This document shows positions 5,951-47,454 of a DNA stretch of 64,000 nucleotides, piece after piece. The first letter of the stretch is position 1; each line of letters begins with the position of its first letter. The position numbers were made by a program, and so were the translations under genes. Origin of the DNA: a virus; the IMG/VR virus record IMGVR_UViG_3300030099_006646, positions 1 to 64,000 of that record. One strand, given 5' to 3'. The notes under the pieces were generated by a model. The model made no database searches and was not told where the DNA came from. It was given only the letters and a program-made list of their open reading frames with translations.

Positions 5951-7210
5951 TTGACTGAAAAAATGAAGATTATAACTATTTCCGATAGCCCGATGGCTCC
6001 ATCAGGTGTTGGAACACAAACAAACTATATGATACAAAGTTTATTAAAGACTGGTAAATATCAATTTATTTCTATAGCTGGAGCCATTAAACATACGAAT
6101 TACAATCCTATCAAAACAGAAGAGTGGGGAGACGACTGGGTTGTCCTTCCAGTAGATGGTTATGGAACTCAAGAGCAAATTAGATCTATGGTCCGAAATG
6201 AAAAACCAGATGCTCTTTGGTTCATGACTGATCCCCGATTTTTCGGGTGGTTGTGGGAAATAGAAGATGAAATAAGACCTCTTTGTCCTATGATTTATTA
6301 TCATGTGTGGGACAATTACCCATACCCAAGATACAATGAGCCTCTTTATTCTTCTACTGATGTGATTGCTACAATTTCAAAAGTGACAGACAATGTAGTT
6401 AGAAACGTCGCTCCTGAAGTAGAGTGTATTCACATTCCTCATGCAGTGCCTGATGAAATTTTTATGCCCTTGGAAGAAGATGTTATTAATGCCTTGCGAA
6501 AAGATAATCTTGGTGATGAGAAAGATAAATTTATTGTTTTTTGGAACAATCGCAATGCTAGAAGAAAACAATCTGGTACTTTGATTTATTGGTGGAAGAA
6601 GTTCTTGGACAAAGTTGGATATGATAAAGCGAAACTTATCATGCATACAGATGTTCATGATCCATATGGTCAGAATCTACAATCTATTATTGAATCTTTA
6701 GGCTTGACCAATGGCGAAGTTGTATTTTCACAAAACAAAATTGGATTGCAAGACATGGCATCTTTTTATAATATGGCAGATTTGACTGTCAACATTGCCG
6801 ACGCCGAAGGATTTGGACTTGGAACACTTGAATCTCTTTCATGTGGAACGCCCATTATTGTTACAATGACAGGAGGTCTTCAAGAACAAGTTACAGATGG
6901 AGAGAACTGGTTTGGCGTTGGGATTGAACCTTCTTCTAAAGCTGTTATTGGTTCTCAAGAAATACCATATATCTATGAAGATAGAATCAATGAGGATGAT
7001 TTTGTAAACGCACTTGAGAAAATTTATAATATGACTCCAACAGAACGTAAAGAGCTAGGTGCAAAAGGCAGACAACACGTATTAAATAACTACAGCTTTG
7101 AACTTTACGGTCAACGTTGGGATGATCTTTTTCAGAAGGTCCAAAAGGACTATGGTTCCTGGGATACAAGAAAAAACTATAAAAACTGGCACTTGAAGGA
7201 GGTCAAATAA
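5951..7210 (+). CDS. Glycosyltransferase, GT-B (GT4-like)
   Basis: SDSP..PSGVG, NNRNARRK, YNMAD, AEGFGLGTLESLSCGTP; TTG start after GAGG. Confidence 0.9.
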   Translation: MTEKMKIITISDSPMAPSGVGTQTNYMIQSLLKTGKYQFISIAGAIKHTNYNPIKTEEWGDDWVVLPVDGYGTQEQIRSMVRNEKPDALWFMTDPRFFGWLWEIEDEIRPLCPMIYYHVWDNYPYPRYNEPLYSSTDVIATISKVTDNVVRNVAPEVECIHIPHAVPDEIFMPLEEDVINALRKDNLGDEKDKFIVFWNNRNARRKQSGTLIYWWKKFLDKVGYDKAKLIMHTDVHDPYGQNLQSIIESLGLTNGEVVFSQNKIGLQDMASFYNMADLTVNIADAEGFGLGTLESLSCGTPIIVTMTGGLQEQVTDGENWFGVGIEPSSKAVIGSQEIPYIYEDRINEDDFVNALEKIYNMTPTERKELGAKGRQHVLNNYSFELYGQRWDDLFQKVQKDYGSWDTRKNYKNWHLKEVK

Positions 7211-8457
7211 TGAGAAAGAAGATTATTGTTACAGGTCCAGCTTTGTCTCAATCAGGCTACGGCGAACATACTAGATTTTTACTTAGAGCTTTAAAGAGCA
7301 GAGAGGATGTTTTTGATATCTACCTTCACAATGTAAATTGGGGTAAAACAAACTGGCTTTTTCATGACGATGACGAACGTCGATGGTTTGATTTTATTCT
7401 TCAAAAGACTGTTTTTCATACTCAAAAAGGTGGCAAATTTGATATTTCTGCTCAAGTAACAATTCCGAATGAATGGAAACCTCTAGCTCCAATCAATATC
7501 GGAGTTACTGCTGGTATTGAGACGACAAAGGTATCCCCTCAATGGATTGAAAAGTCATGGTTAGTAAATAAAATTATTACTATATCTGAACACTCAAAGC
7601 AGGTGTATGAAAGCACTTCATATCAAGCGTCGAACAATCAAACAGGAGAACAATTTATTGCTTCTTGCAAAGCACCTATCGACATTGTGCATTATCCCGT
7701 CAAGCAACCTGAATTACTTGATTTAGATATTGATTTTGAATATGATTTCAATTTTTTGACTGTAGCACAATGGGGTCCAAGAAAAAATCTTGACAATACT
7801 GTTAAATGGTTTTTGGATGAGTTTAAGAATAAAGAAGTTGGATTGATTATTAAGACAAGCGTCGCAAAGAATTGTCTTCTTGACAGAAGAATGACATTTA
7901 ATAATCTTAGGCGATTAATCGATAATGATGAAAATAGAAAATGCAAAGTCTATCTTTTACATGGATATATGTCAGATCAAGAAATCAACTCACTTTACAA
8001 TCATTCAAAAGTGAAGTGTCTTTTAAGTGCCACTCATGGCGAAGGCTTTGGTCTTCCTATCTTTGAAGCTGCTTATAATGGCTTGCCAATCATTGCGCCA
8101 TCTTGGTCTGGGCATGTGGATTTTCTTTATATGCCGAAGAAAGACAAGAACGGCAAGATTAAAAACAAGGCAATGTTCTCAAAAGTAGATTATAACTTGT
8201 CTCCTATTCCAGAACCAGTAGTTTGGGATGGGGTTCTTCAAGCAGACTCTATGTGGTGTGAACCTAAAGAAGCTTCCTTTAAACTTAAGATGAAAGACAT
8301 GGTTGATAACTGGAAGAGGCATAGCAAAAGAGCAAAAGATCTTCAAGCTTATGTTTTGGAAAACTTTAATGAAGAAAAACAGTACAAGGCGTTCACAGAT
8401 AGTATTCTATCTCTAATCGAATCACCCCAAGAAGATGAGCTTGTTGAGTTTGATTAA
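7210..8457 (+). CDS. Glycosyltransferase, GT-B (GT4-like)
   Basis: SQSGYGEH, PRKNL, HGEGFGLPIFEAAYNGLPII. Confidence 0.9.
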   Translation: MRKKIIVTGPALSQSGYGEHTRFLLRALKSREDVFDIYLHNVNWGKTNWLFHDDDERRWFDFILQKTVFHTQKGGKFDISAQVTIPNEWKPLAPINIGVTAGIETTKVSPQWIEKSWLVNKIITISEHSKQVYESTSYQASNNQTGEQFIASCKAPIDIVHYPVKQPELLDLDIDFEYDFNFLTVAQWGPRKNLDNTVKWFLDEFKNKEVGLIIKTSVAKNCLLDRRMTFNNLRRLIDNDENRKCKVYLLHGYMSDQEINSLYNHSKVKCLLSATHGEGFGLPIFEAAYNGLPIIAPSWSGHVDFLYMPKKDKNGKIKNKAMFSKVDYNLSPIPEPVVWDGVLQADSMWCEPKEASFKLKMKDMVDNWKRHSKRAKDLQAYVLENFNEEKQYKAFTDSILSLIESPQEDELVEFD

Positions 8458-8465
8458 GGAGACTT

Positions 8466-10076
8466 ATGAATATAGTTTACATCTCTGACTTTTTTGTGGA
8501 ACAAGTAGCCGGTGGAGGAGAACTCGTTGACGATTGTCTAATGAAGCATCTTTCTTCACGCGGCTTTTCCATTTTAAAGGTCAATTCACAAAATACAACA
8601 CAAGATTTTTTAGAAAAAAATAAAGATTCGTTCTTTATTGTCTCTAACTTCGTTGGATTAAGTCAACAAAGCAAAGATTTTCTTCAAAATTGCCGCTACA
8701 TTATCTACGAACACGATCACAAGTACATAATAGAGCGAAATCCTTCGCATTATCCAGACTTTGTTGTGCCTCCAAGCCGATTATGCAACCTTTCTTTCTA
8801 CAGAAATGCTCAAGCAGTGGTTTGTCAGTCAAAACTACACGCAGAAGTCTTACGAAAGAACATAAAATCTAACAATATTGTCTCTGCTGGTTGTACTTTA
8901 TGGTCAAAAGAGCATCTAGAGGTCTTAAGAAAGCATCTTAATACTCCAAAAACCGACAAAGCCGCTGTCTTAGACTCAACTAACCAAGTAAAAGGCACAT
9001 TCCAGGCTATTGAGCATTGCAAACGCAAGAATATTGACTATGAACTTATTAAATCACCTGATTATGACGAGTTTATTGGTCAACTTGCTTCAAAAAACTC
9101 ATTAGTTTTCTTTTCACAGGTATTAGAGAGTTTTTGTAGGCTCGTCGTAGAAGCCCGTATTCTCGATTGTAAGCTCATTACGAACAAAATGAATGGTTGT
9201 ACCTCGGAAGATTGGTTTAAAGCCTCTAAGGGGGCAAAACTCCTTGAATACGTGGAAAATAAACAAGAAGAAGTGGTTGATCTGTTCGTTTCACTTGTAA
9301 AAGGTGAGAAAAACACCGAAGTTATGCAAGAAACTGCTGATATTACAGTGATTTTGAACTCTTACAGGCGTCCATATAACCTAAAAATGCAAATAGAGGC
9401 TCTAAAAGCCCAAACAATCAAGCCAAAAGAGATTTGGTTGTGGGTAAATGCCCATGAAGACAATAAAGATTACGATTATTCCGACTTAGGGCTTGATAAA
9501 ATCTTTAATAACGACTTTAACTGGAAATTCTACGGTAGATTTGCCGGAGCACTGCTTTCAGACACCAAATACGTCGCTATTTTTGATGATGATACCATTC
9601 CAGGCACAAAATGGTTCGAAAACTGCTTAAATACGATGAAAACACACGAAGGTATCCTTGGTTCGGCTGGAATCTTGCTAAATGACAAAATTTATGTAAA
9701 ACACGACCGTTGTGGTTGGCCAACAAGGAATGAAGAGGCTATAGAGGTAGATTTAGTGGGTCATGCGTGGTTTTTTAAGCGAGATTGGCTACAATACCTC
9801 TGGAAAGAGAAGCCACCGACCTGGGATAACGCAGAAGACATACAATTTGCCTATTCTGCCCAAAAATACGGTAATATTAAGACATATTGCCCTCCACACC
9901 CTAAAAATGACATGGAAATGCACGGATCTATCATGGGAAATGAACTTGGCATCGATAATAAGGCAACTTCGACCAATTCTGCCGTTTCGCACCAACAATT
10001 CTTCTCTGAAAGGGACTTTTGTGTGCAATATGCCCTAAAAAATGGGTGGAAAACAGTACGAGGAGTCACGTTATGA
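8466..10076 (+). CDS. Two-domain glycosyltransferase (GT-B-like plus GT-A/GT2-like)
   Basis: N-half GGGEL..EHD..ESFCRLVVEA; C-half ITVILNSYRR, IFDDDTIPG (DxD), AEDI. Confidence 0.8.
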   Translation: MNIVYISDFFVEQVAGGGELVDDCLMKHLSSRGFSILKVNSQNTTQDFLEKNKDSFFIVSNFVGLSQQSKDFLQNCRYIIYEHDHKYIIERNPSHYPDFVVPPSRLCNLSFYRNAQAVVCQSKLHAEVLRKNIKSNNIVSAGCTLWSKEHLEVLRKHLNTPKTDKAAVLDSTNQVKGTFQAIEHCKRKNIDYELIKSPDYDEFIGQLASKNSLVFFSQVLESFCRLVVEARILDCKLITNKMNGCTSEDWFKASKGAKLLEYVENKQEEVVDLFVSLVKGEKNTEVMQETADITVILNSYRRPYNLKMQIEALKAQTIKPKEIWLWVNAHEDNKDYDYSDLGLDKIFNNDFNWKFYGRFAGALLSDTKYVAIFDDDTIPGTKWFENCLNTMKTHEGILGSAGILLNDKIYVKHDRCGWPTRNEEAIEVDLVGHAWFFKRDWLQYLWKEKPPTWDNAEDIQFAYSAQKYGNIKTYCPPHPKNDMEMHGSIMGNELGIDNKATSTNSAVSHQQFFSERDFCVQYALKNGWKTVRGVTL

Positions 10077-11080
10077 TGCTAATTTGCTTTGGAACACGCC
10101 CTGAATACATCAAAATTAAGCCTATTTTGGAGGTTTTTAAGGGTAAAATACCCCATAAAATCCTGTTTACAGGGCAACATACAGACCTTTTAGAGCATAT
10201 AAAAGACAATGTTCACCGCTTATATATTAAAGATGGACCTAATAGATTAGATTCTATTGTCACTTCTACCTTGAATAACGAGGATATTTTTAAAAATGTA
10301 ACGTCTGTTATGGTACAAGGAGACACTACATCGGCTTTTGCTATTGCTTTGGCTGCTTTTCATCGTAAAATACCCGTATTACACCTTGAGGCAGGGCTTA
10401 GAACGTATAATTTAGACCATCCTTACCCTGAAGAGTTCAATAGACAGGCAATTGGGCGCATAGCGACCTATAATCTATGTCCTACATCTAAATGTATGGC
10501 AAACTTAGAGAAAGAACACACTCCAGGTAAAAGATTTATTGTAGGCAACACAGTTTTAGATAATCTTGTTGATTTAGAGCCTTCTTTTAGTAATAACGTG
10601 ATTATAACGCTTCATAGGAGAGAAAATCATCACTGGATTGATGAATGGTTTAAAAAAATAGATAAATTGGCTGAGAAACACAAAGATTTAAACTTTATAT
10701 TACCAATTCATCCAAATCCAGCCGTTTTAAAGCACAAACACTTATTAGAACACGTAAAAGTCATTGATCCAGTGCCATACGATGAATTTATTAAGATGCT
10801 GGCGGGATGTAAGTTCGCTATAACAGATAGCGGAGGATTGCAAGAGGAACTTTCCTTTTTTGGCAAGCTTTGTATCGTATGTCGTAAGAAAACAGAGAGA
10901 ACAGAAGGTGTAGGAACCTTTGCCTACCTTTGCATGGAACCAAACAACTTAGAAGAGCTGTTTAATAGAATAAACAGCAACTATAACTCTGTTAAAGGCA
11001 TACCTTCTCCATATGGCAACGGAAAATCAGCCGAAAAGATACTAAAACTCATAAAGGATGGTTATGTCACAGGGATTTAA
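10073..11080 (+). CDS. wecB: UDP-N-acetylglucosamine 2-epimerase
   Basis: GTRPEYIK, VQGDTTSA, HLEAGLR, PEEFNR, TLHRREN, HPNP, TDSGGLQEE, TER, PYGNG; ATGA-coupled start at 10073. Confidence 0.93.
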   Translation: MMLICFGTRPEYIKIKPILEVFKGKIPHKILFTGQHTDLLEHIKDNVHRLYIKDGPNRLDSIVTSTLNNEDIFKNVTSVMVQGDTTSAFAIALAAFHRKIPVLHLEAGLRTYNLDHPYPEEFNRQAIGRIATYNLCPTSKCMANLEKEHTPGKRFIVGNTVLDNLVDLEPSFSNNVIITLHRRENHHWIDEWFKKIDKLAEKHKDLNFILPIHPNPAVLKHKHLLEHVKVIDPVPYDEFIKMLAGCKFAITDSGGLQEELSFFGKLCIVCRKKTERTEGVGTFAYLCMEPNNLEELFNRINSNYNSVKGIPSPYGNGKSAEKILKLIKDGYVTGI

Positions 11081-11846
11081 AGAAGATTTCTTCAATCTTC
11101 TCAATAAGTTAAAGAATAATGAGCATTTTGCCTTTACTCGTTTTTCAGACGGTGAAGTATTCGTCATGGAGAACAAACATTTGATTTTACAGGAGAAATT
11201 CTGTAAAGTAGGCGATTTAATCCATAACTTTGGTTATTCAGAGGATGATCACAAAGAATTTGACCCTGAAAAGCATCAGTTCGTCCGTGAAAAGCTTATG
11301 GACGCCTTTAACTTTAAGAAAGAGAACTATTTCGTTGGAGCAGGGTGTAATAACTGCACTTGCGAGATTAGAAACCAAATTCCTTGGCTAAAAGAGATGC
11401 GACCAGGCGATGAAGAACACTGGACTTCTCCAAACCTGCTCGTTAACTCAAACTATCCTCTTTTTATCACACAGTTTGTCCCAGAGTTTAAAAATCACAA
11501 GATTGTTATGATCTGTAGCGAGAAAGCCAAGTTTGATAAAGCTCCTTTTGATGTTGTAAAAGACTTTAGGGTTGGAAAGAACTGTATTGTCAACGATCAT
11601 CATCTTGAAGAAGAAATCAAGACCTGGATGAACGAGAACAATGTTGAGAACCATTTATTTTTATTCTCTGCGTCAAGTTTAAGTGAAATACTCATTCATA
11701 AATTATTCGAACACAATGATAAGAATACCTACATGGATATTGGGACTTGTCTGCATCCATATCTTGGATTAACAGTGGAAAGAGATTATCTTAGAGCATA
11801 TTGGAACAACAAGTTTCACCCTGACCTTTTTAAGGAATGCGGTTGA
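11058..11846 (+). CDS. Putative GT-D fold (DUF1792-like) glycosyltransferase
   Basis: FAFTRFSDGE (RFxDGE signature) and C-terminal YMDIG. Confidence 0.6.
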   Translation: MVMSQGFKEDFFNLLNKLKNNEHFAFTRFSDGEVFVMENKHLILQEKFCKVGDLIHNFGYSEDDHKEFDPEKHQFVREKLMDAFNFKKENYFVGAGCNNCTCEIRNQIPWLKEMRPGDEEHWTSPNLLVNSNYPLFITQFVPEFKNHKIVMICSEKAKFDKAPFDVVKDFRVGKNCIVNDHHLEEEIKTWMNENNVENHLFLFSASSLSEILIHKLFEHNDKNTYMDIGTCLHPYLGLTVERDYLRAYWNNKFHPDLFKECG

Positions 11847-12229
11847 TGGATTTTGTAAGCAATAAAAAAGAATATTGGAAGTTTATCTTAGATTTAAGAA
11901 ATCATCCGAGTGTTAAAGTTGGCTTTATTCAACAAGAACATATTTCAGAGGAAAGTCATATAGAATACATGAAAGAACACAGTGATAAATATTTTGTATG
12001 CTTGATTGACGGTGAACCCGCTGGGTATGTAGGAGTTATTAACAAAGATATTCGTGTAGCAACTCATCCAAAATATCAAGGACGCGGAGTAGGTAAATTT
12101 ATGATTGACGAGATAATGAAAATATATCCTAGCTCTTGTGCAAAAATAAAGATGGAAAACGAAGCAAGCATAAAACTTTTTGAAAAATGTGGCTTTAAAA
12201 AGAAATATTACATCCTGGAGAAGCAATGA
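11837..12229 (+). CDS. GNAT N-acetyltransferase (PseH-like)
   Basis: LRNHPSVK..ISEESH, HPKYQGRGVG acetyl-CoA loop, NEASIKLFEKCGF; start may be 11846. Confidence 0.85.
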   Translation: MRLMDFVSNKKEYWKFILDLRNHPSVKVGFIQQEHISEESHIEYMKEHSDKYFVCLIDGEPAGYVGVINKDIRVATHPKYQGRGVGKFMIDEIMKIYPSSCAKIKMENEASIKLFEKCGFKKKYYILEKQ

Positions 12230-13635
12230 TTTCAAACAATAAAAAACTTAAAGACTTAGAAAATATTGATGTAATATTCTTTAGCGCTTTTGACCACAAT
12301 GAGGGAAAAAATAATCATGGATTATTTCAAATGTTCGACTTCTTTAGAAGCAACTTGAAGATAAAGTCTGTGTTTGTCAACACGCTAGAAAGTCTATACA
12401 GGAATGATATCGATATTTTTAATATTAGCCATTTAGGAGAAAATTTACCATTAGCTCAACAGATAAACTACGATTTTATGGATTCAAGCTCAAGTAATCC
12501 GTACCTTTGGCTAAACCAGTGTGATAAAACAGAAGAAGGAAGAAAAGAATATACAGAACACGCAGCCCGTATTTTAATAAAAAACTTGCCGAATCACAAA
12601 TTTATAGCCATCGCTGATAAAGCAGATATTGACTTGCCAGTACTAGAACTGATCTTAAGACACTTTAAATCAAAGGTCATTATTTTATCTGCTGTTAATA
12701 ATACATGGACCGGATATTGTGCATACCCGGATGAATACAATTGTGACAAGTTTAAAACTAAAGAGGGTTGCCGATTACCATGCCCTGCAATTTCTAGAAG
12801 AAAAGGTGGCGATGCAAGTTTTTTGTCTTCGAACTATAATGCCACAAAGGATTTTGTAGAAAGAAACAAGGAATCAGTTGTTTTGAATGTTGGTAACAAG
12901 TTTTCTTTCCAAGAAGCAAGTGAGAGTTTTATATTCAAGGATATCGAAAAAGTTTTAATACCATTAAAAAATGTTTTTTCTCACGATGATTTTGAAAAAT
13001 TATGGCTTGCTAAGAAAGATCAAAGGGAGAACTTACTTAATAATCTTAAGCAACAATCTTCTTTTAACGTGCAAAAAACAAAGTTTATTATCATGTGGTC
13101 AGCGCATGACATAGCTATAAAAAGAAAAGGTATGGATTATTTTATAACTTCTTTAAGAATACTGAAATATCTGATGAAGGTGGATAGGTTTGATGAGATG
13201 TTAGTCGTTATATCTGCACAAATTGGTGATCACGTCCTTGCTAATGAATTAAAAAAACTTAACATACCAGTAGTTTTTACTGGACATATAGATAAAAATA
13301 CTTATAATTCTATCTTAGCTGCAAGTGATGTGTATTGTTCGACTACTCTTAGCGATGCAGGACCTAGAACAACATACGAAGCTGCCGCCCTGGCTACTCC
13401 TGTAATTTCTTTTGATAAATGCAATGCTGCTGATTTTGTAAGTAATGAAAACGGAGCTTTAGTTGAAACTTATGACGTGAAAAGCTTTGCAGAGCAAATG
13501 TACAGATTCGCTAACCACAACAAAGAAGAAAAAAAGTTAACTTCACTCAATATGTATAAGACTTACGAGAACCTGATGGATACTAATAAACTTGTAGAAA
13601 AGTGGGAGGATTTCTTTAAAAAACATGGAGTATGA
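12226..13635 (+). CDS. Glycosyltransferase GT4 (WcaC-like)
   Basis: WTGYCAYP..C..GC..CP, RKGMD, AASDVY, DAGPRTTYEAAALATPVI. Confidence 0.82.
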   Translation: MISNNKKLKDLENIDVIFFSAFDHNEGKNNHGLFQMFDFFRSNLKIKSVFVNTLESLYRNDIDIFNISHLGENLPLAQQINYDFMDSSSSNPYLWLNQCDKTEEGRKEYTEHAARILIKNLPNHKFIAIADKADIDLPVLELILRHFKSKVIILSAVNNTWTGYCAYPDEYNCDKFKTKEGCRLPCPAISRRKGGDASFLSSNYNATKDFVERNKESVVLNVGNKFSFQEASESFIFKDIEKVLIPLKNVFSHDDFEKLWLAKKDQRENLLNNLKQQSSFNVQKTKFIIMWSAHDIAIKRKGMDYFITSLRILKYLMKVDRFDEMLVVISAQIGDHVLANELKKLNIPVVFTGHIDKNTYNSILAASDVYCSTTLSDAGPRTTYEAAALATPVISFDKCNAADFVSNENGALVETYDVKSFAEQMYRFANHNKEEKKLTSLNMYKTYENLMDTNKLVEKWEDFFKKHGV

Positions 13636-15056: not shown

Positions 15057-15064
15057 AAGACGTT

Positions 15065-15706: not shown

Positions 15707-15708
15707 AA

Positions 15709-16374: not shown

Positions 16375-16375
16375 T

Positions 16376-17260: not shown

Positions 17261-17267
17261 GGAATTT

Positions 17268-18110: not shown

Positions 18111-18114
18111 AATA

Positions 18115-18738
18115 ATGTTACACAATCCTTACAAAATAGTACAAATGTTTGAAGAAGAAATGGCGCACTACACAGGAGCGCCTTTTGCTGTTTCAATGAA
18201 CAGTTGCACAAATGCCTTATTCCTTGCTTGCAAGTGGATGGATGTAAAAGATAAAGAAGTTATTATTCCTAAAAGAACTTACCTGTCTCCTCCACAATCC
18301 ATCACGCAAGCAGGAGGTAAGTTAGTATTTGAAGACATTGAGTGGGAAGGAATCTACCAACTAAAGCCATTTCCAATCTATGATGCAGCCAAGCGCTTAA
18401 CCTCCAACATGTACATCCCAGGATCGTTTATGTGCCTAAGTTTTCATATCAAGAAACACCTTAAGATCGGCAAGGGTGGTATGATCCTGTGTGACGACGA
18501 AAAAGCCGTTAAATGGCTAAAAGCTAGACGCTATGAAGGTCGTACAGATGGACTTAAATATCATGAAGACATGATTGATGAAGAAGGGTGGAATATGTAC
18601 ATGACACCTGAACAAGCAGCACGAGGCTTAACTCTTATGCAGAACTATCCCGAGCACATGCCAGATATTCCAGAGAACCCACCTTACAGAGACTTGACAG
18701 AATTTGATTTATTTAAAAACATTGAGGTAAGGAAATAA
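18115..18738 (+). CDS. Shortened DegT/DnrJ-family PLP sugar aminotransferase
   Basis: FEEEMA.Y.G..AVSMNSCTNAL, DAA, SFHIKK (PLP Lys), GKGGMI, GWNMYM; only 207 aa. Confidence 0.85.
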   Translation: MLHNPYKIVQMFEEEMAHYTGAPFAVSMNSCTNALFLACKWMDVKDKEVIIPKRTYLSPPQSITQAGGKLVFEDIEWEGIYQLKPFPIYDAAKRLTSNMYIPGSFMCLSFHIKKHLKIGKGGMILCDDEKAVKWLKARRYEGRTDGLKYHEDMIDEEGWNMYMTPEQAARGLTLMQNYPEHMPDIPENPPYRDLTEFDLFKNIEVRK

Positions 18739-18744
18739 AATTTT

Positions 18745-19500
18745 ATGAGCAAGATAGCATTGGTAGTAAATACAATAAGCAGTAATAAAGACATATGGGA
18801 TATGTTTTTCGACCAGATTGATAGACACATCTCAGATTCTTTTTTTTCAAGCAAATATATTTTTGTAGATGATTCTGGCGATCCTCTACCAGATGGGTAT
18901 AAAGTTATCAACTATGATACAACAAAGAAGTATAGAGATCAATTTTTGAGCGGCATAAAACATGTTGAAGAAGAGTATTGCATTTATATATCTGAAGATT
19001 ATATTTTGTATGAGGATGTTAAAGAAGACATAATACTAGATTATCAAAAAATATTAGATACAGTCCCAAGTTTTTCTTTTATAAGGTTTTTGAAAGGTGG
19101 TATTGCAAACATACATTACCCCAACTTTTTATGCAGGAAAGACCTGTTTGAAATGCACAATTCAATTCCATATTTTTATACAAATCAAGCAGCCTTGTGG
19201 AGGACGAGAGATTTAGAAAAAATTCACCAACATGGTCCCAACCTACACATCGCAAATAAAGATTACGAGAACTCTTTTGAATGGCAAGCTACAAAAACCT
19301 GTCAAGAGTTAGATATAAGAGGTGCCTTTTGTTATCACGGAGAATCAAAAAGAGGAGAGTATCATTATGATTGTCATGTATTTCCTCATATAGCGACTGC
19401 TCTTGTAAAAGGAAAATGGAACTTAAAAGAGTATGCAGAAGAGTTATCCCCTCTTATAAAAAAATATTCTATAGATGTGAACGAGAGAGGTACTCATTAA
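18745..19500 (+). CDS. Putative GT-A glycosyltransferase-like protein
   Basis: DIWDMFF, YISEDY acidic motif, QAALW, WQ, KGKW; glycan cluster context. Confidence 0.5.
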   Translation: MSKIALVVNTISSNKDIWDMFFDQIDRHISDSFFSSKYIFVDDSGDPLPDGYKVINYDTTKKYRDQFLSGIKHVEEEYCIYISEDYILYEDVKEDIILDYQKILDTVPSFSFIRFLKGGIANIHYPNFLCRKDLFEMHNSIPYFYTNQAALWRTRDLEKIHQHGPNLHIANKDYENSFEWQATKTCQELDIRGAFCYHGESKRGEYHYDCHVFPHIATALVKGKWNLKEYAEELSPLIKKYSIDVNERGTH

Positions 19501-19515
19501 TACAGGAGACATAAT

Positions 19516-20724
19516 ATGAAATGTAGAGGATGCGGATCAGAAAATATAAATCTAGTATTAGATCTTGGAGAACAACCTTGGTGTAATGATTTTCTTACAG
19601 AGGATAAGATTGGTAAAGAAGATAAATATCCTTTGCGCTTGTGCTATTGTGAAGACTGTGAACTTTTACAACTTGACCATACTGTTCCAAAAGAAACAAT
19701 GTTTGCAGATCATCAGTATCTCTCTGGAATGACCACTACTTTAGTAAATCATTTTTATGAAGTGGCTGAAGAAAATGTCAATCAGTTTGACATGCAGGCT
19801 GACGATCTTGTAGTTGACATTGGAGGAAATGACGGTAGCCAACTTTTACAATATAAAAAGGCTGGTGTTAGCAACGTAATCAATGTAGAGTCTGCTAAGA
19901 GAGTATCTAGAATCTCTAGAGATGCTGGTGTAAAGACCATTAATGAATTCTTCAATGAAGATTGCGCCCGCCGCCACTTGGGAGAAAAATCAGTTAAGCT
20001 TTACAATGCTTCTGGTGTATTCTTCCACTTAGAAGAGTTGCACAGTGTTATTAAGGGTATTAAATACTCCCTTAGAGATGATGGAGTTTTAATCGTTCAG
20101 TTTATGTATGCTGGTGCAATGATTGAAAATGGAAACTTTGATACAATATACCACGAGCATCTATGTTATTATACTATTAGAAGTTTGAACAACCTTCTTA
20201 AACCATATGGAATGGAGATCTTTGATGCCTATGCCTCTGACATCCATAGCGGCTCTATTATAGCCAAGATTTGTCACGATAATAGCGACTTAAATGCAAA
20301 GACCGATAGGTTTTTAGCTTTGTTAGAGAAAGATAAAGAGTACACAATCCAGAGAACTTTAGAGTTTGCAGAAACCGTAAAACAAAACAGAAATGCACTA
20401 AGAGATCTTTTGGTTGATATTAAAAACAATAATGAAAGCGTCTATGTTTATGGAGCCCCAGCCAAAGGAAATACTTTATTAAATTATTTTGACATCGACA
20501 AGACGCTTGTGGATAAAGCAGTAGAAATCAATCCAATGAAAATTGGTCATTACTTACCTCAATCGCACATACCTATTTGTCAAGAAACAAAGGATGATAT
20601 ACCAGATTATTATCTTCTTTTATCTCATAATTTTGCAAAAGAAATTATAAATAAGAATCAAGACATTATTTCCCAAGGTGTCAAGTTTATCATCCCTTTT
20701 CCTAAGCTTGAGGTGATTGGTTGA
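19516..20724 (+). CDS. NDP-hexose 3-C-methyltransferase (Zn-binding)
   Basis: CRGC, LDLGEQP, YPL.LCYC..C.LLQL, DIGGNDG, FDTIYHEH..YY, HSGS, YGAPAKGNTLLNY, KFIIPFP. Confidence 0.93.
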   Translation: MKCRGCGSENINLVLDLGEQPWCNDFLTEDKIGKEDKYPLRLCYCEDCELLQLDHTVPKETMFADHQYLSGMTTTLVNHFYEVAEENVNQFDMQADDLVVDIGGNDGSQLLQYKKAGVSNVINVESAKRVSRISRDAGVKTINEFFNEDCARRHLGEKSVKLYNASGVFFHLEELHSVIKGIKYSLRDDGVLIVQFMYAGAMIENGNFDTIYHEHLCYYTIRSLNNLLKPYGMEIFDAYASDIHSGSIIAKICHDNSDLNAKTDRFLALLEKDKEYTIQRTLEFAETVKQNRNALRDLLVDIKNNNESVYVYGAPAKGNTLLNYFDIDKTLVDKAVEINPMKIGHYLPQSHIPICQETKDDIPDYYLLLSHNFAKEIINKNQDIISQGVKFIIPFPKLEVIG

Positions 20725-21632
20725 AGGTTTTAGTAACAGGAGCAACGGGTTTTCTTGGCAGACACCTAACACCAAAGCTAGATACGCTCGGATGGGACAT
20801 ATATTTTTCAAACACTAGAACAGCAAATCTTAATGATATTAATAACTTAAATCTTTTTAAAGACATTAAATTTGATTATATCTTTCACTTAGCGGCAGTG
20901 ACTAAAGCAGGAGATTATTGTTTAAAACACCCAGGCGACCAGTGGCTTAAAAACCAGATTATTAATACTAATATTCTAACCTACTGGGTTCAAAATCAAC
21001 CTCAAGCTAAGATGATTTGCATGGGTACAAGTTGTTCATATACACCAGATATATTTATGACCGAAGACAACTATCTTATTGGTGAACCAGATAAAGGTCT
21101 TTACACCTACGCCATGACCAAGAGAATGCTTCTTGTCGGGCTTCAATCTATTGAGAAAGAATATGGTTTGAAGTGGCTTTATTTTGTTCCTTCTACTTTA
21201 TATGGACCTGACTTTGAGCTAGACGATAATCATTTCATTTTTGATTTTATAAGAAACTGCTATAACGCAAAACATAATAATGAAGACTTTGTAATCTGGG
21301 GAACAGGAGAACAGAGAAGAGAGCTGATTTATGTAGAAGACGCTGTTGACGCTATGATAAATCTTTTAAATGAAGAGAATGAAGTTTTTAATCTAGGATC
21401 AGGAGTAGATAATTCTATAAATGAATTTGCAGAAAAAGTTTGTAAATGCTACAAGTATGATTATAATTTAGTGAAGCGTGATTTAACCAAGTACGTTGGA
21501 GTAAAAGAAAAGAAAATTGACACTACTAAAGTTGTAAAACATTTAGGAGATAAAGTTTTCTTAAAAACTTCCCTTGACAAAGGGCTTCAAAAAAGTGTAG
21601 AGTACTTTATAAAAGCAATGGAGACAAAATGA
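20721..21632 (+). CDS. GDP-L-fucose synthase-like NDP-sugar epimerase/4-reductase
   Basis: VTGATGFLG, HLAA, GTSCSY, YAMTK (YxxxK), LYGP, WGTG..RRE.IYVED. Confidence 0.85.
   Translation: MKVLVTGATGFLGRHLTPKLDTLGWDIYFSNTRTANLNDINNLNLFKDIKFDYIFHLAAVTKAGDYCLKHPGDQWLKNQIINTNILTYWVQNQPQAKMICMGTSCSYTPDIFMTEDNYLIGEPDKGLYTYAMTKRMLLVGLQSIEKEYGLKWLYFVPSTLYGPDFELDDNHFIFDFIRNCYNAKHNNEDFVIWGTGEQRRELIYVEDAVDAMINLLNEENEVFNLGSGVDNSINEFAEKVCKCYKYDYNLVKRDLTKYVGVKEKKIDTTKVVKHLGDKVFLKTSLDKGLQKSVEYFIKAMETK
21574..21603 (+). promoter_or_regulatory. Possible sigma70-type promoter
   Basis: TTGACA-18 nt-TAGAGT, ~25 nt before ATG 21629. Confidence 0.45.
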
Positions 21633-22030
21633 CTGATAGAAAATACTTACCAACCTTATCAGAGCTAATCGACCGCTTGTCGATCGTCCAGCTCAAAGAG
21701 GTGTTTATACCAGAACATAAAGAAGAATATTCACAGGAAATAAAAGATATTGTTCATGACATACAACTTTGTTTGAACGAAGGGAGTGAGATTACTGCTG
21801 AGACAATCCGAGCAATTGTTGTCTTGTCGCAAATGAACTTACATATTTGGCATAACGAATCTAACTATCGAAAAGGCATCAAGGATGGAAACAATCTTGA
21901 GCTTACTCACGGCATCAACGGAATTAGAAACACTGCTAAAAACAAGATTCAAGAGATTGTCGGAGGCAGAAAAGACTATAAGATTGACTGTCTAGCTGCT
22001 GAATTTAAAGACTGGGAAGTTAGTTGGTAA
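21629..22030 (+). CDS. Helical hypothetical protein (DUF6165-like)
   Basis: TLSELIDRLSIVQLK, N..IW..E...R, N..R...K..I pattern; GGAG RBS. Confidence 0.6.
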   Translation: MTDRKYLPTLSELIDRLSIVQLKEVFIPEHKEEYSQEIKDIVHDIQLCLNEGSEITAETIRAIVVLSQMNLHIWHNESNYRKGIKDGNNLELTHGINGIRNTAKNKIQEIVGGRKDYKIDCLAAEFKDWEVSW

Positions 22031-22773
22031 TGAAGGTGTTGATTGTAGGTGATGCATGTGAAGATGTGTATATCTATGGAGATTGCAATCGCCTTGCCCC
22101 TGAAGCTCCTGTGCCGGTCTTTGTTCCGCAAACTAATACATCTAATGGTGGCATGGCTTTGAACGTCTTTGCTAACCTTAAATCTCTTGGGTATGACTGC
22201 GATATACTTCACAATACTGAAGAGATTACAAAAACTAGATATGTTGATAAAAAAACTAATCATATTTTTTTACGTGTAGATACTGATGACAAAGAGCTTA
22301 ATCGCATCCAAGACGACAATCTTAATAAAGATTTTCTCAATCAGTATGATGCTATTGTTATATCAGATTATAACAAAGGTTTTCTTTCGGAAGAGGATAT
22401 AGAAAAAATTTGTTACAACCATCCTTTAACATTCATGGATACAAAAAAGAATCTTGGACGTTGGTCTAAAGATTGCACTTGGATTAAAATAAACGAAGAA
22501 GAATATCAAAAAACCTTTAATGAAATCAAACATTTAACTCATATTTTTGATGAGAAACTTATTGTCACTTTGAGTGAAAAAGGTTGTCGGTATAAGGGAG
22601 AAATATTCCCAGTAGACAAGGTAGAAATTAAAGATCTTAGTGGAGCAGGTGACACTTTTCTCGCAGGTCTTGTATGCAACTACTTAAACACTAATGACAT
22701 TAAGAAGGCGATAACTTTCGCCAATGAATGCGCTACCAAAGTAGTGCAAAGGAGAGGAGTAAATGTCGTTTAA
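22030..22773 (+). CDS. PfkB-family sugar kinase, RfaE domain I/HldA-like
   Basis: IVGD...D.Y.YG...RLAPEAPVPV, GGMALNV, KTRY, ISDYNKG, VTL..KG, DLSGAGDTF. Confidence 0.88.
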   Translation: MKVLIVGDACEDVYIYGDCNRLAPEAPVPVFVPQTNTSNGGMALNVFANLKSLGYDCDILHNTEEITKTRYVDKKTNHIFLRVDTDDKELNRIQDDNLNKDFLNQYDAIVISDYNKGFLSEEDIEKICYNHPLTFMDTKKNLGRWSKDCTWIKINEEEYQKTFNEIKHLTHIFDEKLIVTLSEKGCRYKGEIFPVDKVEIKDLSGAGDTFLAGLVCNYLNTNDIKKAITFANECATKVVQRRGVNVV

Positions 22774-23053
22774 AGAATATTATGAACACTATCTAACACT
22801 ACATCAAAACAAATGGAATCGAAGGTTGCACGTCCTTGGAAACACCGCTACCACTACATTCGTAACTCTTTGCGTTTTACATTCGCTTTGGTTTATGCTA
22901 TTATTAACGCCATTCATAGTTTATCCTTTTGCTTGGAGCGGGCACTTCTTCTTTGAGAAAAACAAGCCTGCTGCTTTTTCTAATCCTTTATGGGCTAAAG
23001 CAAGCGACTGGGTAATGCTAAAAGATATTCTAACAGGAAAAATAAGGTGGTAA
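22763..23053 (+). CDS. DUF962/Mpo1-like membrane protein
   Basis: YL..H.N..NRRLH..G, FAW.GHFFFEKNKPA.F..P. Confidence 0.85.
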   Translation: MSFKEYYEHYLTLHQNKWNRRLHVLGNTATTTFVTLCVLHSLWFMLLLTPFIVYPFAWSGHFFFEKNKPAAFSNPLWAKASDWVMLKDILTGKIRW

Positions 23054-23056
23054 CAA

Positions 23057-23986
23057 ATGGCTAATGTATTAATCACAGGCGGAGCAGGTTATATTGGAAG
23101 CGAGTTGGTTCAATTCCTATTGCCTGATCATAAAGTTACAGTTTTAGATAATCTTATGTATGACAGAGATTCTCTTTTAAGATACGTTTCAAATGAAAAC
23201 TTTGATTTTATCAGAGGAGATGTAAGAGACACAAAACTTTTTAAAAGTCTTTTGGATAAATCAGATATTATTATCCCTTTAGCTGCTCTTGTTGGGTTTC
23301 CTTTATGTGATAGAAGCCCTAGAGAAGCAGTTGAAATTAATTTTCAAGCCAACAACTGGCTTTCTAAAGCTAAGTCCAAAGATCAGATTGTTATTTATCC
23401 TTGCACAAATTCTGGTTACGGCAAAAGCGTAGATGGTTCCGTAGTCACTGAAAAATCGCCACTTAATCCCGTATCTTTATACGGCAAAACCAAGGTGGAT
23501 GCAGAGACTATTTTTAAAGAAACTGAAAACTGCGCTACTTTTCGTTTAGCTACAGTATGTGGACCATCCAGCAGAATGAGGACTGATCTTCTCGTAAATA
23601 ATTTTGTCCTTCGAGCACTTCGAGATAGAGTTTTAGTTCTTTACGAATGTGAATTTATGAGAAACTATGTTCACATTCATGATGTCTGCCGCTCGTTTAA
23701 GTTTTTGATTGACAACTGGAATGATTGTAAAAACGATACTTACAACCTCGGACACGATGCTATGAATATGAACAAGCTTCAACTAGCAGAAAAGATTGGC
23801 GAACATACTCCGCTTGAAATTATCAAGGCAGAGTTCACAAAAGATCCAGATGTAAGAGATTATATTGTGAGCAGTCAAAAGATCTACGACAAAGGATTCG
23901 AATGCTTGTATGATCTCGACACAAGCATTCAGCAACTTTTGAAGGCTTATAAGATTATTGACTCTCCTTGGTACGCGAACTACTAG
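23057..23986 (+). CDS. NAD-dependent NDP-sugar epimerase/dehydratase (extended SDR)
   Basis: ITGGAGYIGS, LAALVG.P.C, YGKTK, RLATV.G.S.RMR.DLLVN, RNYVHI.D. Confidence 0.9.
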   Translation: MANVLITGGAGYIGSELVQFLLPDHKVTVLDNLMYDRDSLLRYVSNENFDFIRGDVRDTKLFKSLLDKSDIIIPLAALVGFPLCDRSPREAVEINFQANNWLSKAKSKDQIVIYPCTNSGYGKSVDGSVVTEKSPLNPVSLYGKTKVDAETIFKETENCATFRLATVCGPSSRMRTDLLVNNFVLRALRDRVLVLYECEFMRNYVHIHDVCRSFKFLIDNWNDCKNDTYNLGHDAMNMNKLQLAEKIGEHTPLEIIKAEFTKDPDVRDYIVSSQKIYDKGFECLYDLDTSIQQLLKAYKIIDSPWYANY

Positions 23987-24391
23987 ATGAAAGTTATTTG
24001 GACTAATGGCTGTTTCGATATTCTTCATCGAGGACACGTAGAACTTTTTAAGTTTTGTAAATCACAAGGCGACTATCTTGTTGTTGGTATAGATACAGAC
24101 AGCCGCGTAAAAGAAAGTAAAGGACCCAGCCGTCCTTTCAACAGTCAAGAAGATCGTAAGTTTTTTCTTGAGGCAATCAAGTACATTGATAAGGTTGTGT
24201 TATTTTCAACCGACAACGAGCTAGGACAAAGGCTCGTTGAAAACAATGTAGACACAATGATTGTTGGTTCTGATTGGGAAGGCAAGATGGTCGTAGGGCA
24301 GGAAAAAGTTAACAAAGTTTTATTTTTTGATAGAATAGGAACATACTCTACCACAAACATTCTGGAGGCAAACAATGACGTATGTAGTTGA
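23987..24391 (+). CDS. Nucleotidyltransferase, RfaE domain II/HldC-TagD family
   Basis: TNGCFDILHRGH (HxGH), LVVGID.D, KG.SRP, GSDW, YSTT. Confidence 0.9.
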   Translation: MKVIWTNGCFDILHRGHVELFKFCKSQGDYLVVGIDTDSRVKESKGPSRPFNSQEDRKFFLEAIKYIDKVVLFSTDNELGQRLVENNVDTMIVGSDWEGKMVVGQEKVNKVLFFDRIGTYSTTNILEANNDVCS

Positions 24392-24704
24392 CATTGATGG
24401 AACAATTTGTGAAAAGGTCTCTGGTAACGACTACACACAAGCACAGCCACTACACAATCGTATAAAGGTTATTAACCAGCTTTACGATGATGGTTGCGAG
24501 ATTATTTATTTTACTGCGAGAGGAATGGGTCGTCACAACAATGATGCTGAAAAAGCCATTGCTCAGTTTTATGACTTAACCGAAAAACAACTTGCCTCTT
24601 GGGGAGCTAAGTATCACAAGCTTATACTTGGTAAGCCTGCTGGAGATTTTTACATTGACGATAAAGGAATAAGTGCTCATGTCTACTTTGAATCAGGGTC
24701 TTGA
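24375..24704 (+). CDS. Small HAD phosphatase (capsule-biosynthesis EcbF/BcbF type)
   Basis: VVDIDGTIC, YFTARG, GKP..DFYIDDK. Confidence 0.85.
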   Translation: MTYVVDIDGTICEKVSGNDYTQAQPLHNRIKVINQLYDDGCEIIYFTARGMGRHNNDAEKAIAQFYDLTEKQLASWGAKYHKLILGKPAGDFYIDDKGISAHVYFESGS

Positions 24705-24705
24705 A

Positions 24706-25047
24706 ATGAAGTTCGTCAAGAAGGGCTGGGGTTACGAGAAATGGATAGTAAACAAGTCCGAATACTGCGGAAAGCTTCTTTTCTTTATGAAAGGTAAAAG
24801 ATGCTCTTGGCATTACCACGAACTTAAAGACGAAGTTTTTTATTTACAATCAGGAAAGATGTTGGTCAAATTTTCTGACAAAGACAACATCGCCCTGGCT
24901 GAAGAACTTGTTTTGAATCCTGGAGATAACTTTCATGTATGGCGCGGACTCCGACATCAAATGATCGCCCTTAAAGATTCAGAGCTTTTTGAGTTTTCGA
25001 CTGAGCACTTTGACTCTGATTCACACAGGATTTTAAAAGGAGATTAA
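24706..25047 (+). CDS. Cupin, putative sugar(-phosphate) isomerase
   Basis: VKKGWGYE, CSWHYHELKDE.FY, L.PGD..H....H, EFST. Confidence 0.8.
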   Translation: MKFVKKGWGYEKWIVNKSEYCGKLLFFMKGKRCSWHYHELKDEVFYLQSGKMLVKFSDKDNIALAEELVLNPGDNFHVWRGLRHQMIALKDSELFEFSTEHFDSDSHRILKGD

Positions 25048-25998
25048 ATGAAACTTGTTGTTATTACTGGATGTCTAGGTTTAATTGGCTCATATGTCAC
25101 AAGAAAATGCCTCTCTAAGGGTTGGAAGGTCTATGGGATAGACAACCTTACCTATGCGGCAAACAAATCGTTTCTAGACGATTTTAGAAGGGATTCTAAC
25201 TTTACCTTTCTGGAAGAAGATATCGCTCAACTTAAATCTTTACCAGATTGTGATTATGTTATTAATATTGCTGCTGAATCTCACGTAGGTAATAGTATCA
25301 TTGATAGTAGCGATTTTATTGAAACAAACGTGAATGGAGTAAAAAACCTGCTAGACCTTATTCGCCGAAAACCAGACAACACTATGAAGCGCCCTGTTTT
25401 CTTTCATTTTAGCACTGATGAAGTCTACGGAGACATCGCAGAGGGCGAACACGTAGAGACAGACCCTCTTATCCCAAGTAACCCTTATTCAGCCTCTAAG
25501 GCATCATCAGATATGCTTATCTTGGCTTGGGCAAGGACTTACGGTGTAAAGTATGTTATTGTTCGTCCAACAAACAACTATGGTGAAGGACAATACCCAG
25601 AAAAACTTATTCCTTTATGTGTGAAACTCCTCCAGCGAGGAAAAAAGATCATGCTTCACGACGAAGGCGAACCAATCCGCAACTGGCTTCACGCAGAAGA
25701 TACAGCAGAAGCAGTTACAACTATTATAGAATCTGGCAAAGTAGATGAAATCTTTAACATTCCAGGCGATTTTGAACAAAAAAACTGGTTAACTGTTAAA
25801 AAAATCATTGAAGCGTACTATAATAGTGAGGTAAACTGGAAAGATTACGTGGACTTAAGCCACAAAAGACCTGGACAAGATGTTAGATATGCTCTTAACG
25901 GAGACAAACTAGAAGCACTTGGATGGAAACCTACAAAGGTTTTCGACGAAGAGATTGTAAAGCTTGTTCAGTTTTACAAAGAAAATTTCAAATGGTAA
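25048..25998 (+). CDS. rmlB: dTDP-glucose 4,6-dehydratase
   Basis: AAESHV.NSI, STDEVYG, PYSASKA, NNYG..QYPEKLIP, RNWLH, RPGQD.RYAL. Confidence 0.92.
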   Translation: MKLVVITGCLGLIGSYVTRKCLSKGWKVYGIDNLTYAANKSFLDDFRRDSNFTFLEEDIAQLKSLPDCDYVINIAAESHVGNSIIDSSDFIETNVNGVKNLLDLIRRKPDNTMKRPVFFHFSTDEVYGDIAEGEHVETDPLIPSNPYSASKASSDMLILAWARTYGVKYVIVRPTNNYGEGQYPEKLIPLCVKLLQRGKKIMLHDEGEPIRNWLHAEDTAEAVTTIIESGKVDEIFNIPGDFEQKNWLTVKKIIEAYYNSEVNWKDYVDLSHKRPGQDVRYALNGDKLEALGWKPTKVFDEEIVKLVQFYKENFKW

Positions 25999-26185: not shown

Positions 26186-26441
26186 ATACTTCTACAAATG
26201 CCTAAGCGAAGACTGCAAGCAAATCATCGAAGTTGTGCATTCAATGAAAGAAAAGCTTGATATTTGCTTGTATTGCTCGGGAAGTGTAGAGAGAGTACCT
26301 ATGAATACAGTCAGCGTGTTTAAAAATACTGACAAAGATAAAAAACAAAAGACAGGCTCAATTGTCAAAAAGAGTATTGAAGATTTTAGACAAGATCTAA
26401 AAGATGAAAAGAAAAGATTAAGAGAGATAGAATATAAATGA
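26178..26441 (+). CDS. FmdB-family zinc-ribbon protein
   Basis: MPKYFYKC...C..E..HSM......C..C. Confidence 0.8.
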   Translation: MPKYFYKCLSEDCKQIIEVVHSMKEKLDICLYCSGSVERVPMNTVSVFKNTDKDKKQKTGSIVKKSIEDFRQDLKDEKKRLREIEYK

Positions 26442-42016: not shown

Positions 42017-42018
42017 AA

Positions 42019-47430: not shown

Positions 47431-47432
47431 TG

Positions 47433-47446: not shown

Positions 47447-47454
47447 GACATAAG

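Follow-up and report, generated by a model that had tools for sequence, protein, structure and literature searches.

What does a phage assemble with a 25-gene island for making and transferring sugars that holds no gene for moving the product across a membrane, and on what acceptor is the product built? The question is raised by positions 5951-25998 of IMG/VR virus record IMGVR_UViG_3300030099_006646, a linear phage contig of 158.6 kb (CheckV completeness 75%; GC content 38.5%; nearly all genes on one strand), the first 64 kb of which form the window analyzed here. The island consists of 25 open reading frames (ORFs), all on the + strand and either overlapping or spaced by at most 15 nt, as had been claimed in a preliminary description of the window. 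That description placed a complex glycan most plausibly on virion proteins. Our analysis adds a soluble, lineage-wide pathway, conserved "anchor" glycosyltransferases (GTs) and a motif excess in baseplate and fibre proteins; the acceptor itself we infer. That the island encodes a two-layer cytoplasmic assembly line targeting virion proteins is the best-supported reading, one for which we judge the case to be evenly balanced.

Genes were assigned from Pfam and NCBIfam scans, and structures from AlphaFold models compared with Foldseek. Eighty related loci were fetched, and the islands of 79 relatives were surveyed over 654 kb downstream of the anchor (758 ORFs). The closest relative that is complete (185.5 kb) covers the part absent from the ~75% complete contig. 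Contigs from independent marine metagenomes reproduce the gene order, one covering 11366-20736 without a difference and others covering other parts: the island is therefore not an assembly chimera. Megablast of the island against cultured phages returned only a single 33-bp match.

A soluble pathway

Hidden Markov model (HMM) searches of the contig found no Polysacc_synt/Wzx (PF01943) and no Wzy_C (PF04932), and neither Bac_transf (PF02397) nor Glycos_transf_4 (PF00953) gave a match at E <= 1. Wzx (PF01943) is likewise absent by HMM from five complete relatives, and no Wzx- or Wzy-like protein was seen in two complete relatives scanned whole for membrane proteins. Whether wzx or wzy lies elsewhere in the genome, a point raised in the preliminary description, can thus be answered in the negative for the contig, and the closest complete relative is also negative.

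A Kyte-Doolittle scan of all ORFs found a sole transmembrane (TM) segment in the island, in a 96-aa Mpo1/DUF962 protein. Together HMMs and scan bear out the claim that the island has no Wzx, Wzy, WaaL, WbaP or WecA and that DUF962 is its only membrane gene. In the whole contig two proteins have three or more TM segments, one tape-measure-like and the other of 211 aa; across the contig and two complete relatives this class is made up of a tape-measure-like protein, a PAP2 phosphatase and a few small (75-110 aa) ORFs. The scan does pick up polytopic proteins, for example one of 14 segments in Flavobacterium phage immuto. It gave no candidate for an ABC-2 permease and none for the membrane proteins of GtrABC serotype conversion (the flippase GtrA, the TM-anchored bactoprenol glucosyltransferase GtrB and the polytopic Gtr(type) protein); both negatives come from the TM scan, no ABC-2 or GtrA HMM having been run. 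The GT2-domain protein of the island has no TM segment. None of the 758 ORFs in the islands of the 79 relatives has more than two. The data support a pathway that is soluble and, across the lineage, without genes for priming, flipping, polymerizing, ligating or exporting.

In bacterial O-antigen and capsule loci the enzyme families are the same, as are the co-oriented cluster of nucleotide-sugar and GT genes and the conserved flanks with swapped cassettes between them, but the phage, unlike those loci, has no priming phosphoglycosyl transferase, no Wzx flippase, ABC transporter or permease, no Wzy polymerase and no WaaL ligase.

The description of the cluster as lacking all lipid-carrier machinery holds for the island, but not for the genome. 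Beyond the window, at 138495-139130 of the contig, lies a gene for a PAP2-superfamily phosphatase (211 aa, 5 TM segments) with weak similarity to PgpB/undecaprenyl-diphosphatase; it is the only lipid-carrier-related gene seen. PAP2 homologues (L092:5293-5934; L102:412-1029, - strand) are present in three of the seven relatives that are at least 90% complete, and absent from four complete relatives, immuto and the Microcystis phage Mel-JY01.

In immuto (NC_055915) two membrane proteins without a Pfam match were seen: gp185 (46550-47695; 381 aa, ~5 TM segments), two genes upstream of the nuclease-GT cluster, and a 1006-aa protein (150801-153821; ~14 TM segments). There may be a membrane partner in that phage.

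Conserved anchors and exchangeable cassettes

The island opens with two adjoining GT4 genes, anchor GT4 1 (5951..7210; a GT-B enzyme, Pfam PF00534) and anchor GT4 2 (7210..8457; Pfam), followed by a compact GT-B domain that forms the N-terminal half of a 536-aa protein (8466..9320). Relatives of the first occur in at least 586 IMG/VR contigs, the best 80 being 60-84% identical, and hundreds of homologues (60-88% identical) are found in marine metagenomes. A single order is kept in the 80 loci: PhoH2, small ORFs, a PD-(D/E)XK nuclease, GT4, GT4. The nuclease, here the conserved left flank (5164..5940, + strand; PF12705, E = 1.3e-16; synteny), is present in 77 of the 80 and adjoins the GT pair in immuto and Mel-JY01 also; anchor GT4 2 is present in 74 of 79 loci.

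Orthologues of anchor GT4 1 extend far beyond the marine relatives, at 29-32% identity and 75-97% coverage: they were found in immuto and Mel-JY01 (30-32%), in a 484-kb metagenomic phage and in Rhodothermus phage RM378 (29%), and the phages that carry them include the most distant relatives found by way of a baseplate protein. Among cultured phages the GT4 pair is present in immuto and Mel-JY01, and the first GT4 in RM378. The annotated order in immuto and Mel-JY01 is nuclease, GT, GT, and then differing GT2, aminotransferase, methyltransferase and epimerase genes. Just 24-26 proteins are common to this phage and immuto or Mel-JY01, the two GT4s included, and against a distant complete marine relative anchor GT4 1 ranks ninth by identity of 59 shared proteins.

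In the relatives the compact GT-B domain has three contexts: it may make up the N-terminal half of a 536-aa protein, stand alone, or be fused to anchor GT4 2. Its profile found no match in immuto or Mel-JY01, and perhaps only the marine lineage carries this third anchor. In ~23 relatives anchor GT4 2 is fused to an extra domain, mostly the compact GT-B and in some instances GT2, giving proteins of 659-719 aa (for example L005:11251-13347, L027:11257-13332 and L020:11254-13302). We read these fusions as Rosetta-stone proteins that tie the anchor enzymes together functionally. By synteny and shared-protein counts the first two GT4 genes and the compact GT-B are core genes of the lineage, a status newly found here.

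Both GT4 anchors keep the catalytic EX7E motif: for anchor GT4 1 it is conserved in 12 homologues, and for anchor GT4 2 at least 95% of 77 sequences, those of immuto and Mel-JY01 included, retain its glutamates E278 and E286. An arrangement of the GtfA/GtfB kind, with anchor GT4 2 as the inactive partner, was considered and is rejected because the motif is conserved.

What follows the anchors is hypervariable. The 758 ORFs of the 79 relatives fall into 320 protein clusters, 186 of them singletons, and a Pfam tally of 149 cluster representatives returned glycan-related families only: methyltransferases, GT2, FkbM, radical SAM/B12, CMP-sugar synthetases, GT4, RmlD, GT10, GT11, UDP-glucose dehydrogenase and DegT. 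In the closest complete relative the left and right parts of the island are common, at 67-99% protein identity (81-98% for the right-hand module, 21629..25998), while other genes replace 12226-18110 and 18745-21632. The loose ends of metagenome contigs fall at the cassette borders (11963-12234 and 18110), and one marine metagenome contig (run X9) joins 17250 to 18085, which removes the methyltransferase gene at 17268-18110; the deletion of 17251-18084 is a presence/absence variant of a single gene in a natural population. From the exact order in independent contigs, the ends at the borders and the deletion variant it follows that the island is real and swaps cassettes in nature.

The islands of the relatives (alignment A2, L002-L081) also carry radical SAM/B12-binding and TPP-dependent enzymes, CMP-sugar cytidylyltransferases and GT10/GT11 fucosyltransferase-like proteins. 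To judge from their families, these hint at C-methylated, phosphonate-type, ulosonic-acid and fucosylated decorations.

The acceptor

The two layers would work as follows. The anchors (GT4, GT4 and compact GT-B), whose GT4 pair matches replication and structural genes in conservation across a very abundant marine phage lineage, would start the glycan by attaching sugars to Ser/Thr residues of baseplate and fibre proteins of the phage itself, at sites that probably resemble [ST]-G-S. Phage-specific cassettes would supply rare activated sugars and further transferases (GT2, GT-D, GT4); with these variable enzymes each strain would assemble an outer glycan of its own, and diversifying selection would act on the resulting virion "serotype". 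The predicted products are ManNAc, an N-acylated amino-dideoxyhexose, a C-methyl deoxyhexose and a heptose- or polyol-phosphate-like unit, with O-methyl and hydroxyl decorations. In its widest form the proposal is that the ocean lineage and the Flavobacterium, Microcystis and Rhodothermus phages covalently O-glycosylate their own baseplate and fibre proteins at [ST]-G-S-type sites by means of GT-B anchors, with outer sugars diversified by cassette exchange into virion "serotypes" analogous to O-antigens; we put this forward tentatively, the balance tipping slightly against it.

The evidence for such sites comes from motif counts. Composition-preserving shuffles of the proteins of this phage predict 33.6 occurrences of [ST]-G-S, and 85 are observed; six large proteins of the baseplate/fibre region account for nearly all of the excess, and the island's own enzymes for none. 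The excess is strongest in the baseplate proteins at 40484..47430 (+ strand), with 5 occurrences against 0.8 expected and 17 against 2.8, and the homologues of these candidate acceptors in relatives are likewise enriched. Seven phages that carry anchor GT4 (this phage, three marine relatives, immuto, Mel-JY01 and RM378) each have a ratio of observed to expected of 2.3-2.7, as against 0.72 in T4, 1.20 in P-SSM2, 1.49 in HTVC008M and 1.57 in S-PM2, which have no anchor GT4. For [ST]-S-G, a permutation of the motif, most anchor-GT4 phages give a ratio close to 1. The excess is suggestive of candidate acceptor sites in baseplate and fibre proteins.

A second line of argument is the distribution of the anchors. 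Since they are core to phages whose hosts belong to different phyla, their acceptor should be one that does not change with the host, and the place of the GT4 pair among the few proteins shared across those phyla favours an acceptor intrinsic to the phage. A universal host lipid acceptor, such as undecaprenyl diphosphate-linked GlcNAc (Und-PP-GlcNAc), would also explain conserved anchors.

Among the fold comparisons, the match of the GT-D enzyme to streptococcal glycosyltransferases, described below, counts in favour of virion proteins, and those of the compact GT-B are neutral. The N-terminal 285 aa of the 536-aa protein are modelled as a compact GT-B fold (pLDDT 96.3), to which Foldseek finds BshA, T4 alpha-glucosyltransferase, GtfC/Gtf3 and PimA most similar (E ~1e-7); these fit protein, DNA and small-molecule acceptors alike and do not discriminate among them.

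Several points count against virion proteins as the acceptor. That they bear the sugars is a prediction from sequence, and could fall either way. The phages with anchor GT4 form one clade, compared here with four controls, and their motif excess may be an unrelated lineage trait of the fibre fold. The island of immuto and Mel-JY01 lies beside replication genes, not structural genes, and the compact GT-B resembles the DNA alpha-glucosyltransferase of T4 as much as it does protein glycosyltransferases. If the host offered Und-PP-GlcNAc or lipid A-core as a conserved lipid acceptor, together with its own Wzx and WaaL, the conserved anchors and the lack of export genes would be accounted for too. 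Finally, there is the accessory PAP2 lipid phosphatase of this phage and three of its more complete relatives.

Remodelling of the host surface is the strongest of the alternatives: the glycan would be built on a host intermediate linked to undecaprenyl phosphate or lipid A-core, and the priming transferase, flippase and ligase of the host would then display it, altering the surface of the infected cell, perhaps as a barrier to superinfection. Comparable islands in cyanomyophages and pelagimyophages have been interpreted in this way in the literature (PMC7029224, PMC12801897). Lipid-linked acceptors are common among GT4 enzymes, the compact GT-B has a weak match to PglA in the region of EX7E, and the near-universal occurrence of Und-PP-GlcNAc is compatible with conserved anchors; PAP2 adds a little weight, but is accessory and missing from the four complete relatives and two cultured phages noted above. 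Yet a flippase, polymerase, ligase or ABC exporter is present in none of the 79 islands, whereas nearly all bacterial loci of this size have such genes; core status across host phyla, at the level of replication and structural genes, would be unusual for an accessory exclusion function; and the [ST]GS excess in virion proteins is left unexplained. We consider host remodelling doubtful. An acceptor of some other kind in the cytoplasm (a phage protein outside the virion, a host protein, a small molecule or a membrane glycolipid, serving for example takeover of the host or evasion of its defences) is improbable in our view. The GT4 families do include synthases of small molecules and glycolipids, with BshA, MshA and MGlcDAG synthase among the best, if weak, NCBIfam matches; there are weak matches to the GT4 "conflict systems" family PF20706; and acceptor specificity is not readable from sequence. 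Against this, a hypervariable product of many transferases suggests an exposed polymer under diversifying selection rather than a metabolite, and the motif excess in outer virion proteins would again go unexplained.

Hypermodification of DNA, in which the transferases would glycosylate modified bases to evade restriction and the variable genes would supply diverse sugars, is the least credible of the alternatives and in our estimation highly improbable. A conserved acceptor and diversifying selection both fit it, a nuclease flanks the island in nearly all loci and in immuto and Mel-JY01, and T4 alpha-glucosyltransferase is among the top fold matches of the compact GT-B; the DNA glycans of phages are also diverse, according to the passage of PMC12619734 that cites Pyle et al. 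2024. However, no DNA glycan system is known to reach ~20 genes with 6-8 transferase domains. The gene content indicates neither glycosylation of the T4 alpha/beta-GT type nor a functionalized-base pathway: a search for genes of DNA-base modification, of the kind that the preliminary description had envisaged, found no ThyA-type hydroxymethylase (PF00303) in the contig or five complete relatives, and no TGT/DpdA (PF01702) or QueC (PF06508) in the contig or four to five complete relatives. The DNA of immuto, analyzed by LC-UV-MS/MS, consists of canonical dA, dC and dT with fdPreQ1 fully replacing dG, and no glycosylated nucleoside was reported (bioRxiv 10.1101/2023.04.13.536721). DNA glycosylation is thus unlikely in this lineage.

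How does an assembly line for virion glycans compare with known systems? The preliminary description had implied that the island is without precedent, but hypervariable GT/"LPS" (lipopolysaccharide) islands have been published for cyanomyophages (P-SSM2, S-SCSM1, S-SCSM2R) and pelagimyophages (PMC12801897; PMC7029224), and several core glycosyltransferase families have been reported in "Moraphages" (PMC12619734). Those islands too belong to large marine myophages, are hypervariable and are rich in GTs, NDP-sugar epimerases/dehydratases and rfaE-like genes, and there as here the target is a prediction from the genes. Unlike them, the island described here has a conserved anchor of two to three enzymes ahead of its variable part. 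The anchor GT4 profile has no match in P-SSM2, S-PM2, HTVC008M or T4, and by this measure the likeness is one of kind, not of descent. The papers on those phages assume host O-chain or DNA as targets, and the phages themselves have no [ST]GS excess of the same level.

A functional parallel is provided by mycobacteriophages Che8, Corndog and Myrna, in which phage-encoded, soluble GTs of the cytoplasm decorate structural proteins, as stated in the passages of PMC12619734 and PMC12801897 that cite Freeman et al. 2023 (Cell Host Microbe). As far as those passages go, this is the only experimentally demonstrated phage precedent for the mechanism proposed here; the acceptors, as cited in PMC12619734, are C-terminal tails of the capsid and tail tube proteins, and the hosts are Actinobacteria. 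The transferases of the present phage are soluble also, as expected of virion glycosylation of the mycobacteriophage type. The mycobacteriophage systems reportedly comprise few GT genes and no large nucleotide-sugar pathways. A further parallel is the glycosylation of fibrils in Megavirinae (Mimivirus, Megavirus, Moumouvirus) and of capsids in chloroviruses, where rare sugars of bacterial type are made and transferred by virus-encoded soluble enzymes, the content of the clusters is clade-specific and the glycans lie on the outer layer of the virion (PMC10117803; PMC9614988). Unlike the phage, these are eukaryotic giant viruses with unrelated virion proteins, and compared with theirs the variation among phages is finer-grained, with cassettes differing between phages that are 80-95% identical.

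At the level of fold only, the transferase set recalls the system that glycosylates streptococcal serine-rich repeat (SRR) adhesins on Ser/Thr in the cytoplasm: a tandem GT-B pair (GtfA/GtfB), a small GT-B (Gtf3/GtfC) and a GT-D enzyme (DUF1792, dGT1). In contrast to that system the phage has no accessory Sec system, its GT4 anchors both keep EX7E and so include no GtfB-like inactive partner, and the GT-D gene occurs in just 11 of 79 relatives. The likeness to DUF1792 comes from the 262-aa protein at 11058..11846. Its AlphaFold model (pLDDT 86, pTM 0.89) matches 4phr, 4pfx and 5v4a (E 4.5e-7 to 2.8e-5, with nothing else at that level), which are DUF1792 glycosyltransferases of Streptococcus parasanguinis and S. 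sanguinis; for 4phr, E is 4.5e-7 and probability 1.00, with a TM-score of 0.54 over 263 columns. We take the streptococcal enzyme to extend the O-glycan of adhesin Fap1, and the DxE motif of DUF1792 to be metal-binding; the corresponding residues D31-G32-E33 are invariant in 10 homologues of the phage protein. No match to this protein was found at the sequence level in Pfam or the PDB, so that its assignment to GT-D is made from the fold. The model and the DxE motif together agree with what is expected of a GT-D (DUF1792) enzyme.

If virion proteins are indeed the acceptors, particle glycosylation would extend from mycobacteriophages and giant viruses to major marine phages, and a large fraction of ocean myophages would bear strain-specific glycan coats. 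This would have bearing on host recognition, on adsorption to particles and mucus, on resistance to proteases and grazers and on the diversification of phage "species", and such islands could no longer be annotated by default as host-LPS auxiliary genes. Cultured phages put the question within reach of a test: immuto, Mel-JY01 and RM378 carry an anchor GT4 orthologue and the motif excess, and the DNA chemistry of immuto is published. New here are the fold assignments, a motif test that takes in cultured relatives as well as outgroup controls, the cassette variants from natural populations, the PAP2 caveat and the link to the DNA chemistry of a relative.

Other features of the island and its flanks

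Nearly all gene assignments of the preliminary description were upheld. Its count of about six GT genes with about seven domains becomes five genes with six domains, plus two candidates, at 18745 and 16376; a PhyH dioxygenase (13625) and a 133-aa unknown protein (21629) were missing from its list, and the aminotransferase it named is present in a short form. PDB sequence searches returned nothing usable for the 262-aa, 251-aa and 294-aa proteins.

All genes of the island, and the sigma-factor gene of its right flank, lie on the + strand. After the anchors come the GT2 (GT-A) domain that forms the C-terminal half of the 536-aa protein (9321..10076; PF00535 at residues 294-396, E = 1.8e-5), WecB, a non-hydrolysing UDP-GlcNAc 2-epimerase (10019..11080; TIGR00236, 232 bits against a cutoff of 210) expected from this match to yield UDP-ManNAc, the GT-D protein, and a GNAT N-acetyltransferase (11837..12229; PF00583, E = 1.3e-13) that is weakly PseH-like (TIGR03585, below cutoff). 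Variable cassette 1 (12226..18110; Pfam/NCBIfam and Atlas) has seven genes: GT4 (from 12226; Pfam), the PhyH dioxygenase, WbqC (from 14361), a SAM methyltransferase (from 15050), an LbH acetyltransferase of the NeuD/PglB/VioB type (from 15709; above its NCBIfam cutoff), a GH130/GH32-like propeller that is a candidate GT (from 16376; Atlas) and the second SAM methyltransferase (17268-18110). The three genes of cassette 2 (18745..21632; Atlas, Pfam and NCBIfam) encode a 251-aa protein of a virus-only family, possibly GT-A (from 18745; Atlas), a two-domain sugar C-methyltransferase (from 19516; PF08421 and PF08484, with NF047922 below cutoff), whose closest bacterial homologue is 44% identical and belongs to a metagenome-assembled genome of Spirochaetaceae, and an Fcl-like epimerase/reductase of the SDR family (from 20721).

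Between the cassettes lies a short DegT-type aminotransferase-like gene (18115..18738; 207 aa; PF01041, E = 1.8e-25). Proteins of this short form (~207-215 aa) keep the PLP-lysine motif, SFHxxK in the translation, and are without the C-terminal domain. The gene product is 99% identical to that of the closest relative, where its neighbours are 67-95% identical, and it recurs in 13 islands; the immuto counterpart is gp172 (215 aa, L082:19531-20175). It could serve as an anchor for recombination, or be an aminotransferase of unusually short form. The idea of an aminotransferase split by an in-frame stop (18115/18745) was rejected: the TAA is followed by an AGGAAA ribosome-binding site and ATG, the ORF at 18745 is a member of another, virus-only family, and relatives keep DegT in its short form.

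The right-hand module (21629..25998), with all Pfam/NCBIfam matches below equivalog cutoffs, comprises the 133-aa unknown, a PfkB kinase resembling RfaE domain I (from 22024), the Mpo1/DUF962 protein (22763-23053; Pfam and hydropathy), a second SDR (from 23057), a cytidylyltransferase-like nucleotidyltransferase resembling RfaE domain II or TagD (from 23987), a small and weakly matched HAD phosphatase (from 24375), a cupin (from 24673) and an RmlB-like 4,6-dehydratase (from 25048; 300 bits against a cutoff of 365). Kinase and nucleotidyltransferase together resemble the two halves of RfaE/HldE. Because most nucleotide-sugar enzymes fall below curated equivalog cutoffs, the exact sugars named above are predictions. 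In a distant relative a homologue of the Mpo1/DUF962-like protein, 67% identical, is encoded away from the island (G004 172690-172986); this is probably not a glycan gene.

The sigma factor and baseplate neighbours claimed for the right flank, the latter identified by a baseplate wedge match, are real, although the sigma match is weak. The probable late sigma factor (26736..27473; phrog_234, E = 7.3e-6) is a conserved flank, its homologues being 59-90% identical in relatives and 32% in immuto. Ahead of it a weak terminator-like hairpin (26500..26522, + strand; five G-C pairs and then a T run) is possibly the end of the transcription unit; overall, terminator-like and sigma-70-like sites are at the level of shuffles, and the T4 late promoter TATAAATA shows no enrichment (7 copies on the + strand, 17 on the - strand). 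The hairpin itself (26500-26513) falls within a candidate 140-aa ORF (26438-26860) with one "TM" segment, which overlaps the sigma-factor ORF by 125 nt and has counterparts 77% and 38% identical in two relatives. Immediately before the baseplate genes a 983-aa protein without a family match (27791-30742) contains low-complexity linkers rich in Pro/Gly/Ala and in Lys/Glu; it is 25-31% identical in relatives, and both GC and AT skew peak there.

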